Positions 4,015-9,082 of a stretch of DNA of 64,000 nt are shown here, piece by piece (within the stretch, counting starts at the first letter, position 1; each line of letters begins with the position of its first letter). Origin of the DNA: an uncultured Gemmatimonadota bacterium (GTDB lineage Bacteria > JAAXHH01); contig OX638340.1 of the NCBI GenBank assembly GCA_951812955.1, forward strand, positions 3,520,001-3,584,000, given 5' to 3'. Position numbers and translations under genes: made by a program. The notes below the pieces were generated by a model. The model was not told the DNA's origin. It saw nothing but the letters and a program-made list of their open reading frames with translations, and made no database searches.

Positions 4015-4089
4015 GCCGCGGGCTGACTTCTCTGGTCGAATCCTCTATTCTCTACGATTCTATAATCCAGCGTAACTCAGTGCTTTTAA

Positions 4090-4400
4090 CCATACGGAAC
4101 CGCTGATCGACTCGGTTGTTCGGTCGAGAGGTATCGTTTGAGTCCGTTGAACGTACGATCACGTTGAAAATGGTGTCGCTCTGGATGCTTACGAGACTGT
4201 TTTCGACCTTGAACGAGTCTGGAACGAGCCGCTTTGCCCTTCGTCCGCATAGGCCTTGTCACCGTAGATCGCCTTCCCTGGACGGTCAGTTTTATTGACG
4301 CGGACTTCGCGGGGCATTGACACCTGCCTGGGTTGACCTTGTCGAAAGCCCGGATCTGCCACGAATCCCGCTTTACTACCGTCAGTAAGACTTAGTACCC
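4090..4400 (+). pseudogene. decayed IS3-family transposase (integrase-core) remnant, copy A
   Basis: About 75% nucleotide identity over about 100 bp to 8590..8690. Residual translation ...MVSLWMLTRLFSTLNESG resembles the RGNCWDNAVAESFFSTLK region of IS3 OrfB. Lower GC than the flanks. Confidence 0.45.
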
Positions 4401-4643
4401 CCTCCCCTAATATACTGTACGCGCCCTATCCGTTTGTTTACAATATAATCATATTTAATTCTTATAATTTCACATTTAAGCCACGAGTTATTGATCTTAG
4501 ATTTGATAAGTTAAGACTCCAGCGTTAGTATTATGTTGAAAAATCCAGTTTGATTCACATATTGAATTTATCAATCTCTGAAACAACTGACCCGTTCGTT
4601 TGTGAATACAGGGGCAGCATTTTCTTCCAAAGAATGTACCTCG
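4400..4643 (+). promoter_or_regulatory. AT-rich putative promoter/leader region upstream of LRR lipoprotein 1
   Basis: GC drops sharply (tttacaatataatcatatttaattcttataatttcacattt...). No ORF. Lies immediately 5' of a large gene. Confidence 0.3.
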
Positions 4644-6980
4644 ATGACTTTCGAGTTCCGACTTACGTCACGGCGTTTGGGACGCTTCCTCGTCCTGCTG
4701 CTCGCCTGCCTTGCCCTTCCTTTGCTCGTCACGTGCGGCAGGGACACTCCCACGCAGTCACGGACCGCGGTCCCGGCGCGGGTAGTGGTCACGCCTGTGG
4801 CCACGGATCTGGCATCGGCAGGACAGACTGTGCGACTCAACGCCCGGGCGCTTGACGACGCCGGCCAAGAAGTCTCGGAGGCTCCTGTTGCCTGGCGCAG
4901 CACCGACGCGTCGGTGGCGCGCGTGAGCGCGGACGGCGTGGTCACCGCCGTGGGGGAAGGCAGCGCCCTCATAACGGCCATGGCCGGCCAGAAGACGGCT
5001 CAAGCGAAGGTGACGGTGGCGGACCCGGTGCGCGCGGCGCTGCGGGCGCTGTACGAGGCGACGGGCGGGGCGAACTGGAAGAACAGCGACAACTGGCTGA
5101 GCGCCCGGCCCGTTGGCGATTGGTACGGGGTAATCGGCGAGCCATCCGGACCGAGCGGGATTTCGCAACGGAGAACCAGCGCCGGCGGACTGACGCGCCT
5201 GGACCTGTCCGGCAACGGATTGACGGGCGAGATCCCTCCCGTGCTGGGCAGCCTGGCCGGTCTTCGTTATCTGGACCTTTCCGACAACGCGCTGTCCGGC
5301 GCGATCCCTCCTGCGCTGGGCAACCTGTCGTCCCTCGAGACGCTGAAGCTGCACGATAACCGGTTGTCGGGCGAGATCCCTTCGGAACTGGGCAACCTGG
5401 AAAGTCTCCGGGAGCTGTCTCTGCACGGCAACGGGCAACTGACCGGTGCGTTGCCCCTTTCGCTCGCCAACCTGGACCGTCTGGAAACGTTATCCCTTTC
5501 GGGTACGCAGTTGTGCGCGCCGACCGATGCCGCGTTTCAGAACTGGCTGCAAGGAATCGCGAACAGGACCGGCATCTTCAATTGCGGCAACGATACGGAC
5601 GGCGACCGGAACGTGCTGCTCGCCCTGTACAACGCGACGGACGGTCCCAACTGGACGACCCGTACGAACTGGCTGAGCACCCGTCCCCTGTCGTCCTGGC
5701 ACGGGGTGGGCGTGAACGCCGCAGGGCGCGTCGACAGCCTGATCCTCGAAGACAACGCGCTGGCCGGACCGATCCCCGCCAGCCTGGGCAGTCTCGCCGG
5801 CCTCGTGGCGCTGGACGCGAGTGGCAACCAGTTGTCCGGCAGCATCCCGGAGGAGCTGGGCGATCTCTCCGGTCTGGTTACGCTTGATCTCAGCAACAAC
5901 GCGTTGACCGGACCGATCCCGCCGGCGTTGTTCAGCCTGCCCAATCTCGTTACGCTGGAGCTCTCCGGCAATCGGTTTACGGATATCCCGGATACAGACA
6001 TCCCGGATACAGGCACCCCGGTCCTGACGGATCGGGATGTGCTGGTTGCGCTCTACAACGCCACGGACGGCGAGAACTGGACGAACAACACCAACTGGCT
6101 GAGCGACAGGCCGCTAGGGGAATGGCACGGGGTTCGCGTCAATGCGGAGGGGCGCGTCGAAGGACTGGACCTTAGCGCTAACCAGCTATCGGGCCCGATC
6201 CCGACCGAACTCGCAAGCCTCACCAAGTTGACACATCTGTATCTTTACGATAACCAGCTATCGGGCCCGATCCCGGCAGAAATCGCAAGCCTCACCAATT
6301 TGACAGAGCTGGACCTTAGCGAGAACCAGCTATCTGGCCCGATCCCGTCCGAACTCGGCAGCCTCACCAAGTTGGAAGATCTGTGGCTTTTCGGTAATCA
6401 GCTATCGGGTCCCCTGCCCGGAACGTTCACCGGTCTGACAAACTTGGAAAGACTGTCCATCGAAGGAACCGGGTTGTGCGCGCCGACGGACGCGGCCTTC
6501 CAGGCGTGGTTGAGGGGAGTCGATGACAAATCTGGAGTGGTCAACTGTGCCGGCTCAAGCCCAGACCTGATCGTCGCATCGCCATCGGTAAGCGACGACA
6601 CCCTGACGACGGGGCAGTCTTTCACGCTGAGCGCGTCGGTGCGCAACCAGGGCACGGGGCGGTCAGCCTCGACGATCCTGCGCTATTACCGGTCTTCGAA
6701 TTCGACCATCTCATCGTCCGATACGCAGGTCGGCACGGACGCCGTGAGCGCACTGGCCGCATCGGGAACGAGCGCTGAATCGATCAGCCTGTCCGCGCCT
6801 TCGAGCGTCGGGACGTACTACTACGGCGCGTGCGTGGACGAGGTAAGCGGCGAGAGCGATACGGGCAACAACTGCTCTACGGGCGTGCGCGTCACGGTGA
6901 TGGTCGAGGATGACCACGGCGATACTCGGTCTGGAGCGACATCCCCTCGCGCTGAGCGGTTCGGTCTCGGGACGGATTGA
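4644..6980 (+). CDS. LRR lipoprotein 1: lipobox signal, Big_2 domain, three plant-type LRR supermodules, CARDB domain; reading frame broken near 6943
   Basis: Signal and lipobox LLVTCG. Big_2 (VVVTPVATDL...AKVTV). N-caps LYxATxGxNWxxxxNWLSxRPxxxWxGV. 24-aa LRRs LxxLxxLxLxxNxLSGxIPxxLG. C-caps GTQLCAPTDAAFQNWL. CARDB (PDLIVASPSV...GTYYYGACVDE...NNCS). Confidence 0.75.
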   Translation: MTFEFRLTSRRLGRFLVLLLACLALPLLVTCGRDTPTQSRTAVPARVVVTPVATDLASAGQTVRLNARALDDAGQEVSEAPVAWRSTDASVARVSADGVVTAVGEGSALITAMAGQKTAQAKVTVADPVRAALRALYEATGGANWKNSDNWLSARPVGDWYGVIGEPSGPSGISQRRTSAGGLTRLDLSGNGLTGEIPPVLGSLAGLRYLDLSDNALSGAIPPALGNLSSLETLKLHDNRLSGEIPSELGNLESLRELSLHGNGQLTGALPLSLANLDRLETLSLSGTQLCAPTDAAFQNWLQGIANRTGIFNCGNDTDGDRNVLLALYNATDGPNWTTRTNWLSTRPLSSWHGVGVNAAGRVDSLILEDNALAGPIPASLGSLAGLVALDASGNQLSGSIPEELGDLSGLVTLDLSNNALTGPIPPALFSLPNLVTLELSGNRFTDIPDTDIPDTGTPVLTDRDVLVALYNATDGENWTNNTNWLSDRPLGEWHGVRVNAEGRVEGLDLSANQLSGPIPTELASLTKLTHLYLYDNQLSGPIPAEIASLTNLTELDLSENQLSGPIPSELGSLTKLEDLWLFGNQLSGPLPGTFTGLTNLERLSIEGTGLCAPTDAAFQAWLRGVDDKSGVVNCAGSSPDLIVASPSVSDDTLTTGQSFTLSASVRNQGTGRSASTILRYYRSSNSTISSSDTQVGTDAVSALAASGTSAESISLSAPSSVGTYYYGACVDEVSGESDTGNNCSTGVRVTVMVEDDHGDTRSGATSPRAERFGLGTD

Positions 6981-7482
6981 TCCCGGCACTGACGTCGATT
7001 ACTTCGAGATGGAAGTCACCGAATCGGGAACATTGACGGTCAATACGACCGGCAGCCTCGACACAACGGGCGAACTCGAGGACAATTCAGGCTCCCGCTT
7101 GGCGCGTAATGACGATGGCGGCAGCGGATCTAACTTCAGAATCAGCCATTCGGTGAGTGCGGGAACGTATTACGTCAAAGTGGAAAGCTTTAGCTCGAAC
7201 ACCGGGAGCTACACGATCCACGCGAGTCTGGCGAGCGGCGGCGGTGGCGGCGGTGGTGGCGACGGTGCCTGCGTAGCCGGATTGGTCGTGAATCCCGGTG
7301 AGAGTTGTACGTACAAGGGCTATGACTTTTCCGTTAGTTCCACAGGCAGAGGGAGCATTGCCTTTTTCTCCGCGGGAACCGGTATAGATGCAAGGGGTAG
7401 CACGATCAACGGCGTGCGTTGGAACTTCCATGCCACCCGAAACAGTGGTAGTAACAGTTGGACCATCCATACTGCTGATTGA
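6946..7482 (+). CDS. out-of-frame (+1) continuation of LRR lipoprotein 1: pre-peptidase C-terminal (PPC) domain plus Gly8 linker and a small C-terminal domain
   Basis: DDHGDTRSGATS in frame 0 is followed in frame +1 by LALSGSVSGRIDPGTDVDYFEMEV...GTYYVKVESFSS, the canonical PPC motif. The shift occurs at the cccc run 6943..6946. Confidence 0.6.
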   Translation, partial: LALSGSVSGRIDPGTDVDYFEMEVTESGTLTVNTTGSLDTTGELEDNSGSRLARNDDGGSGSNFRISHSVSAGTYYVKVESFSSNTGSYTIHASLASGGGGGGGGDGACVAGLVVNPGESCTYKGYDFSVSSTGRGSIAFFSAGTGIDARGSTINGVRWNFHATRNSGSNSWTIHTAD

Positions 7483-7784
7483 ACGGTTTCACCAGGTACG
7501 CTTCATCTCAATGGTCTTCATCTTCAGATAGTGTCAACCAGATCTGCGTACGAAACACGGCTATCGAAAACCTGGCTGGCATGGAGGAATTGTCATGTTC
7601 GGTAACTGGATTTCGAGAAGCGTCAGACTTTCGGGAACGTGACCATTGTAAGTCCGGCTGAGAAGAGCTTCAGATGCAGTGGGTCTTCTTGAGGCGGTGA
7701 CCTCATTGACACGCGTTCCGTTCAGGATTGACGGTCCATCCTTCCGGACACGTGTAACCGAGCCTGCTCGGCAGGAGGTATGAA

Positions 7785-8336
7785 ATGCGTATTTTACTTA
7801 TGATGATCGTCCTGGTCGCATTGGCCTGTGGCGATGACGATATGCCGACGGCCCCAACTCCCACACCGGAACCGGATCCTGCCGAGAAGCTGATCGGCAC
7901 GTGGAAATACACGGGGAACGATTTCGATACCAAACTGGCCGCCAACGTGCGGAATTACCTGATCGGCGAGGGCCATACTGCGAGCGAGGTCGACAAGGCG
8001 GTATCTGGCGCCCTTGGTGAACTCGACTTGGCGTTAGCCCGTACCTTTAACTTTAGGTCAGACGGAACGGTGATTGTCGACAGCGAACCTCCTTACCGGT
8101 ACCAGGTGTCCGGCAATCGAATAATCATCACGACTTCGGATGGTGAGACTCTTTTCTTGGGGGGTGGTGAGACTCTTTCCGGGGAATACGCCGTTACGGA
8201 CACCGCGCTTACCCTGCATTTTCCAGTAGCCCCGCTGCTGGCGACTGTTGTACCGGAGGACGAAGAGGAAGCGGAACTGATGAGGACCATATATATGGGG
8301 ATAGAGGTCTTGACTATGTATTTCTCGAGGCAGTGA
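7785..8336 (+). CDS. hypothetical lipoprotein (lipobox LVALACG)
   Basis: Signal peptide plus Cys lipobox, Pro-rich linker, beta-rich body. No family recognised. Confidence 0.5.
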   Translation: MRILLMMIVLVALACGDDDMPTAPTPTPEPDPAEKLIGTWKYTGNDFDTKLAANVRNYLIGEGHTASEVDKAVSGALGELDLALARTFNFRSDGTVIVDSEPPYRYQVSGNRIIITTSDGETLFLGGGETLSGEYAVTDTALTLHFPVAPLLATVVPEDEEEAELMRTIYMGIEVLTMYFSRQ

Positions 8337-8531
8337 TTTCTTGTTGAACTGATCACCGTAAATCAGGCGCTTTACTTGATTTCCATGTGGACTGCGCCGC
8401 TCACCAGCATTTAGTATTTTCGCCGACCGCCCTCTGTCGGACTGCGCCTCCCGCCCGTTTTGAAACTGCGCCGCCTGACCGGGACGCATCTGTATTGAGT
8501 ATCTTCTGAGCAAGGAACGTATACGAATCTC

Positions 8532-8922
8532 TTGAGTGAAGCCAGAGTCCGCACCGGCTGCCTTATTGAAGAGTTCTGCAATCTTAAGGCACCTCTGATC
8601 AACCTGGTTGTTCGATCAAGTGGTATGATCCGAGTCCGTTCAGAGATCGATCACGGTGATAATGATGTCGTTATGGGTAATTGCCTTTGGATTCTTGCCA
8701 AGGTGTTTTCATCCTCGGTCGGGTCCGGGAACAGCTTGGCCTGCCCGGGGTTTCGCCTGATCTAGGCGCACATTCAAATAGGAGGCCATCTACCTCAACT
8801 CCTATGACACCGTGTTGGAACTGATCGGTAGGCTAAATCCCTGTTTCTCGTTCTACAGCCATGAAAGGCAGAATCCGTCGCTGGGTTATCTCGCTCCGGC
8901 CGAGGTACACTTTGAACCGTAG
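8532..8922 (+). pseudogene. decayed IS3-family transposase (OrfB integrase core, C-terminal end) remnant, copy B, with a frameshift
   Basis: Frame 1 gives ...IDHGDNDVVMGNCLWILAKVFSSS. Frame 2 gives ...YLNSYDTVLELIGRLNPCFSFYSHERQNPSLGYLAPAEVHFEP*, matching the IS3 OrfB C-terminus (...FYNxxRxHSSLGYLSPxEFE). Homologous to copy A. Confidence 0.55.
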
Positions 8923-9082
8923 TTTTACGTAGAGGATCCACCTTAAGTCTTACAACCTGTGGTCCATACTTGGTGATAAGTTTGCCATTTTAACATTCTT
9001 TAAACACAAACGTGCTACACGCGAGGAAAACAGTTCGACCTGCGGTGTAAAAACACCGAGCCGTTTGTCGTAACTGCCGATC

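Follow-up and report, generated by a model that had tools for sequence, protein, structure and literature searches.

The sequence at approximately 8765-8984, possibly beginning at 8727, of the 64-kb stretch of DNA analysed here (the window) is in all likelihood a solo, 5′-truncated and pseudogenized IS3 right end lying upstream of leucine-rich-repeat (LRR) gene 2. The first-pass annotation of this region quoted two peptide strings, and six-frame translation of 8200-9100 recovered both as quoted. The first peptide, IDHGDNDVVMGNCLWILAKVFSSS (IDHGDNDVV...), lies at 8640-8715 in the phase of 8202, within the mechanical ORF 8532-8765, and the second, (I)YLNSYDTVLELIGRLNPCFSFYSHERQNPSLGYLAPAEVHFEP, at 8785-8922 in the phase of 8200, where it closes as ...IYLNSYDTVLELIGRLNPCFSFYSHERQNPSLGYLAPAEVHFEP at the TAG at 8920-8922, in a frame other than that of the first peptide. 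Both had been assigned to the C-terminal end of the IS3 OrfB protein; this holds for the second peptide, on protein, profile and DNA homology, but not for the first, which lies within a non-coding repeat and matches no family, and the observation as a whole is partly confirmed.

Homology and decay of the IS3 tail

The remains of the last ~51 OrfB codons (RTFK*EAIYLNSYDTV...AEVHFEP*) occupy 8767-8922 on the forward strand, as delimited by an OrfB profile, tblastn and NCBIfam. The conceptual tail corresponds to positions 322-369 of the 369 in the NCBIfam model NF033516 (transpos_IS3), with an E-value of 1.3e-5 and a score under the full-length cut-off because it is only a fragment; Pfam gave no match to the short second-peptide fragment. 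An OrfB profile of 280 positions, derived from 46 distinct sequences of the tail's lineage and run with all filters off against all six frames of the whole window, gave one match, in which positions 231-280 of 280 align with 8767-8916 (E-value 1e-13 to 1e-11). Probing 7.3 Gb of plasmid sequence by tblastn with the second peptide returned 789 records, and wherever the matched feature was annotated it was an IS3 transposase, the top match being a Desulfosarcina BuS5 'IS3 family transposase' (46% identity, E-value 4e-5). When 1.84 billion proteins were searched exhaustively with phmmer, the best true match to the second peptide was P0002, which bears PF13683 (rve_3), with 73% identity and an E-value of 1.3e-11; a formally better match, P0001, is a low-complexity repeat protein and was rejected as spurious. 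P0002 was reached only by this exhaustive search, word-index protein searches having returned nothing for either the tail or the 77-aa ORF. A tblastn search with P0002 as the query matched the tail with 68% identity over 59 aa (E-value 8e-23), and the alignment reads through the premature stop to 8943. These data indicate, far beyond chance, that the second peptide is an IS3 OrfB C-terminus.

At the DNA level, blastn and nhmmer homology define a firm IS3-family remnant at 8765-8984 (forward strand), comprising the 3′ end of orfB and the non-coding right end of the element. By blastn, the remnant is 80% identical with locus L003 over 220 nt (window 8765-8982) and 78-79% identical with L004 and with both inverted copies in L008, and the nhmmer E-values are 4e-42 for L003, 6e-38 for L004 and 5e-40 for L008a. 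A DNA search against plasmids gave no match, and Rfam has no family within 7300-9300. Homology to the IS3 family, as a derived remnant, was found with NF033516, with the subfamily profile and in the DNA identity to L008a.

The DNA homology continues for ~60 nt beyond the stop codon, reaching the non-coding end of the element, and alignment to the relatives assigns 8923-8984 (forward strand) to the former last seven codons (FYVEDPP) and the right inverted-repeat region. The original TAA of OrfB corresponds to 8944-8946, and the TGGTCCA of the right inverted repeat lies at 8960-8966. The right terminus, at 8984 (±3), was set by alignment to L008, whose two inverted copies agree fully as far as ...ACAAGCTCA and differ beyond it, which places the right terminus with CA. 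The terminal sequence of L003 and L004 is ...ACAAGTTCA, and that of the window at the same position is ...ATAAGTTTG, so that at the aligned end the window terminates in TG and the relatives in CA. Because TG replaces CA, the terminus is inferred from the relatives and is not visible in the window's own sequence. CA is the canonical IS3-family terminus (PMC6211511), and at the window terminus it has mutated. An internal sequence, AGCATGGACGG, is similar to the inner part of the inverted repeat (AGTATGGACCA).

The tail carries clear marks of decay. An in-frame TAG stands at 8779-8781, where the relatives have TAC (Tyr), and the premature TAG at 8920-8922 replaces a CAG (Gln) that in the relatives is followed by seven more codons; 26 of the 220 positions of the tail carry window-specific substitutions. 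Weak nhmmer alignments point to a possible further OrfB-derived stretch at 8727-8764 (forward strand), equivalent to the 'ISMDGRGRVF' codons of the relatives, within which the alignment to L008a implies a net 20-nt deletion (5 + 15 nt). The L008a alignment spans 8727-8979, with posterior probabilities of just 0.3-0.7 at its 8727 start and low values upstream of 8765; the L004 alignment begins at 8743, where GCCCGGGGTTTCGCC matches GCCCGGGTCTTCGCC. The left boundary is ambiguous between 8727, 8743 and 8765, because the start of IS homology and the end of the repeat described below overlap. The remnant is ~220-260 bases long and keeps ~50-70 of ~290 OrfB codons.

An intact IS3 element consists of two overlapping genes, orfA (HTH/leucine zipper) and orfB, with a programmed −1 frameshift at a motif of the A6G type, between terminal inverted repeats (5′-TG...CA-3′) that are flanked by a direct target-site duplication of 3-4 bp. 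Neither the DDE core nor the orfA/orfB overlap nor the pair of terminal inverted repeats of such an element was found here. The DDE core (rve, PF00665) had no match in six frames of 8337-8766, and OrfB profile positions 1-230 were unmatched across the whole 64-kb window. A tblastn search of the window with three OrfA sequences gave nothing significant, and no left inverted repeat was detected in the 64 kb at ≤3 mismatches or by an inverted-repeat search. There was likewise no second IS3 copy, piece or end in the window. Upstream of 8727 neither nhmmer nor DNA comparison gave any alignment to L008a; L005, BuS5, Aureibacter, P0067 and P0069, used as protein queries, had no match upstream of the tail, and the upstream DNA showed no signal above shuffled controls when compared with the orfA and orfB genes of the relatives. 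As the tail is 78% identical with L008a, a core equally old would be readily seen upstream of it, and the sharp edge of homology therefore argues for truncation rather than gradual decay. The remnant, to judge from its sequence, is dead, being unable to transpose and encoding nothing functional.

These boundaries alter the picture of an OrfB broken by a frameshift. A decayed OrfB C-terminal fragment is indeed present, but it is a 5′-truncated tail and not a whole OrfB, with at most ~70 of ~290 codons and two stops. The IS-derived span, which had been given as 8340-9000, contracts to between 8727 or 8765 and 8984, and no pair of terminal inverted repeats exists near 8340 and 9000, the right end alone surviving at 8984.

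A non-coding repeat adjoining the tail

The first peptide lies in a non-coding repeat, R2 (8580-8741), which adjoins the IS3 tail ahead of LRR gene 2 and is a diverged copy of a second repeat, R1 (4088-4238), located 364 nt ahead of the LRR gene 1 ORF. R1 and R2 form a direct repeat of ~150-160 nt with 73% identity and indels of 14 and 3 nt (blastn E-value 8e-12, nhmmer E-value 1e-16); their local alignment scores 69, where the highest score in 500 shuffles was 26, and their flanks are unrelated. The first peptide had no match in Pfam or NCBIfam, none to the 46-sequence OrfB profile with all filters off, none among plasmids at E≤10 by tblastn and, among 5.8 billion proteins, no candidate sharing enough 5-residue words. 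In any frame, R1 and R2 had no Pfam or NCBIfam match, and the best tblastn E-values (2-9, for R1) were to unrelated genes. By these comparisons the first peptide is not IS3-derived but part of a ~160-nt non-coding repeat. We rejected a minus-strand IS5-like transposase relic ('IYGDKAY', 'RDRTFNGLKRY') as the identity of this repeat, having found no support in Pfam, NCBIfam or tblastn, and likewise a MITE or a structured RNA, as terminal inverted repeats are lacking and the folding signal is weak (z-score −2.1), two sequences offering too little covariation for a judgement.

These results bear on the reading that takes 8340-9000 in its entirety for a single decayed orfB, 'IDHGDN...' representing the DDE-core region (cf. 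'NTDQG.QF') and the tail being joined to it by a single frameshift. The resemblance of 'IDHG' to the 'TDQG' motif speaks for it, as does the motif spacing, which equals that of the relatives if 'SSSVGSG' is equated with 'ISMDGRG'; the net 20-nt deletion, at 8751-8764, would also shift the frame, but only if the weak match at 8727-8751 is accepted. However, the 'IDHG' likeness extends over just four codons, in DNA that has chance-level identity with L008a where the tail has 78%, and the OrfB profile (filters off), Pfam, NCBIfam and tblastn are all without a match there. Moreover, the first-peptide stretch is a copy of 4088-4238, in which the equivalent frame has stop codons, and the mismatches between the two copies fall evenly over the codon positions (11/14/15), without codon bias. 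We consider a single decayed orfB very improbable and essentially refuted.

The LRR neighbourhood and a proposed history of the insertion

LRR gene 2 (9083-14005, forward strand; ORF list and Pfam), which encodes Big_2 domains, many LRRs and an M66-like C-terminus, is one of the lipoprotein-type LRR genes LRR1 (4602-6980), LRR2 (9083-14005) and LRR3 (14064-18176). By Pfam, Big_2 domains occur in LRR1 and LRR2, and M66-like ends in LRR2 and LRR3. LRR gene 1 probably starts at an internal ATG near 4644 ('MTFEFRL...', followed by the lipobox LVTCG) and not at 4602, and at its 3′ end it shares 71 nt with a PPC-domain ORF (6910-7482), an overlap that may point to a split or frameshifted gene. The right end of the IS at 8984 is separated by 98 nt from the ATG of LRR gene 2 at 9083, on the same strand, which bears out the earlier claim that a mobile element once adjoined the LRR genes.

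Between the LRR genes lies a small lipoprotein gene (7785-8336), which with its flanks (7744-8405, forward strand) has 80% DNA identity with positions 1990-2628 of the metagenome contig L087. The sequence common to the window and L087 stops near 8405, ~320 nt before the IS tail; in L087 the lipoprotein gene is followed by a different gene, with no IS and no LRR gene. L087 and the window differ on the upstream side of the lipoprotein gene too, and it is therefore the whole neighbourhood that is variable, not the IS side alone. The lipocalin-like lipoprotein gene and its promoter/terminator region appear as a conserved cassette with 80-85% DNA identity in L087 and L088 (5960-6201), of which L088 shares just the first 242 nt; the flanking genes of both contigs differ from those of the window on both sides. 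In the otherwise unassignable 8406-8579, the motif ACTGCGCC(N)CC recurs three times in 85 nt (8391-8475); window-wide it is not over-represented, with 13 matches where 8.7 are expected. A short ORF (18265-18501, forward strand) immediately beyond LRR gene 3 reads '...AIHYVNEFAGRFNDRDKE', and 'YVNEFAGRFNDRD' at 18436-18474 resembles the C-terminal motif of IS1595-family transposases. An IS1595 tail at this position found no support in Pfam, NCBIfam or tblastn against plasmids and was rejected; were the motif real, relics of two different ISs would lie on either side of the LRR2-LRR3 block.

In the history that we favour, an IS3 element inserted, as the homology shows, into the intergenic DNA ahead of LRR gene 2 and with the orientation of that gene, the site probably being beside, or within, a copy of the repeat. 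A later deletion or rearrangement would have taken the left ~1 kb, including the left inverted repeat, orfA and ~75-80% of orfB with the whole DDE core, and the surviving tail would then have drifted neutrally, gathering its two stops, the net 20-nt deletion and the 26 substitutions specific to the window in 220 nt. We infer the loss of the left part because homology is lost sharply, and the sequence of insertion and then truncation is a reconstruction, because among related genomes we found none in which this locus is an empty site or carries a full IS. Two proteins of the window, looked up by exact sequence, are not on record. On this account, the interval between the lipoprotein gene and LRR gene 2 would be a place of past rearrangement, which fits the loss of the L087-common sequence at ~8405.

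The first-pass annotation had gone further and suggested that the element could have promoted the duplication or acquisition of the LRR genes, which we regard as speculation; its interpretation as a whole is partly supported. One form of that idea is that the tail is the vestige of an element that brought in the LRR2-LRR3 block, either by 3′-adjacent mobilization, as suggested for ISPpy1, or as part of a former composite transposon. The IS right end faces the LRR genes from a distance of 98 nt, the sequence common with L087 ends at ~8405, just ahead of this region, the OrfB of L008a is 52% identical with ISPpy1-family transposases, and a review lists ISPpy1 as a possible mobilizer of adjacent DNA (PMC9330008). 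Yet the window contains no second IS3 copy or end, the IS1595-like motif beyond LRR gene 3 is without database support, and the divergence of L087 also upstream of the lipoprotein gene makes the whole neighbourhood variable. In addition, LRR2 and LRR3 share 47.5% identity and LRR1 is ~36% identical with each; paralogues just 36-48% identical suggest that the duplications are old. An import of this kind is in our judgement improbable. Still more so is its specific version, in which the tail would be no random scar but the 5′ limit of an LRR2-LRR3 module relocated by an ISPpy1-like IS3 element through 3′-adjacent (one-ended) mobilization, with the recurrent truncation at 'ISMDG' in unrelated genomes (window, L003 and L004) reflecting a specific, repeatable process; if this were true, AGCATGGACGG, through its likeness to AGTATGGACCA, might act as a surrogate end or a deletion hotspot. 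A remaining proposal is that the remnant has been co-opted, an outward −35 in its right inverted repeat contributing to a hybrid promoter for LRR gene 2. Hybrid promoters of this type are described for IS911 and other IS3 members, outward −35 hexamers are documented in IS3-family right inverted repeats (PMC9330008), and both orientation and distance fit. However, a consensus scan of 8950-9082 found no sigma-70-like promoter, a result to be read with the caveat that the organism's own promoter type may differ, and manual inspection gave poor −10 candidates only, which leaves co-option extremely unlikely.

The simple insertion and truncation of an IS3 element, which we prefer, has modest consequences. 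The 77-aa ORF at 8532-8765 and the 36-aa ORF at 8812-8922 are not genes, and the annotation can be corrected to that effect. That a mobile element visited the LRR neighbourhood lends weak circumstantial support, no more, to the view that genes for repeat proteins of this sort occupy variable parts of the genome. Few features of bacterial intergenic DNA are commoner than dead IS fragments, and alone the finding is of little importance, an ordinary genomic scar.

Relationship to other IS3-family elements

The closest full-length relative of the remnant is L008a, in which the end of orfA overlaps an intact 289-codon orfB whose product carries the domains HTH_21, rve and rve_3. This OrfB scores 271.8 bits on NF033516 transpos_IS3 (cut-off 160) and 96.8 on transpos_IS481 (cut-off 224). 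The A-run, a frameshift-site feature that is absent from the remnant, is present in L005.

Truncated copies resembling that of the window occur elsewhere. L003/P0002 and L004/P0057 in MAG OZ241838.1 have the same tail and right inverted repeat, are 5′-truncated near 'ISMDG' and are preceded by unrelated upstream DNA, but their tails keep an open reading frame, whereas the window copy has stops and a deletion. The copies in the window (~8727-8984), L003 (~6190-6470) and L004 (~4055-4330) start within ~10 nt of the same 'ISMDG' codons. A truncated ancestor common to the window and L003/L004 is unsupported, as the window copy is about equidistant (78-79%) from L003, L004 and the intact L008a; it does not group with L003/L004, and the near-identical breakpoints may therefore be coincidence. 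The idea that the window shares the orfA-orfB internal-deletion junction of L004 ('HPK...W...ARVFA' compared with 'HPR...W..ARGFA') was also rejected, with z = 0.1 against shuffles. In this IS lineage 5′-truncated tails are common; among the loci retrieved their breakpoints range from OrfB residue 74 to 211, and truncated copies other than those of the window, L003 and L004 break elsewhere, at residues 74-187. Database chimeras in which the IS3 tail is joined to unrelated N-termini include P0057 (L004 4001-4291), P0104 and P0036, the N-termini being, for example, an orfA piece, an OrfB N-terminal piece or an IS4/IS5-like transposase piece; such chimeras show that this lineage frequently undergoes internal deletion and nested insertion.

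Among named elements, those nearest to L008a are ISGlo6 from Trichlorobacter lovleyi and ISPpy1 from Psychrobacter maritimus, with 57 and 52% amino acid identity respectively in OrfB at ~97% coverage. ISPpy1 was proposed by Petrova et al. (2013), as cited in PMC6211511, as the type of a separate IS3 subgroup. At 52-57% identity, L008a is a different and unnamed IS compared with ISGlo6 and ISPpy1, a placement made by pairwise identity only. Compared with the IS3 family at large, the remnant is without the DDE core, orfA, the frameshift site and the left inverted repeat, and carries two stops and a deletion; what it retains matches the last 48 model positions and has 78-80% DNA identity, through the right inverted repeat, with elements of full architecture. 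It is accordingly classed as the relic of an unnamed IS3-family element, one that is secure in its homology as a remnant and biologically ordinary.
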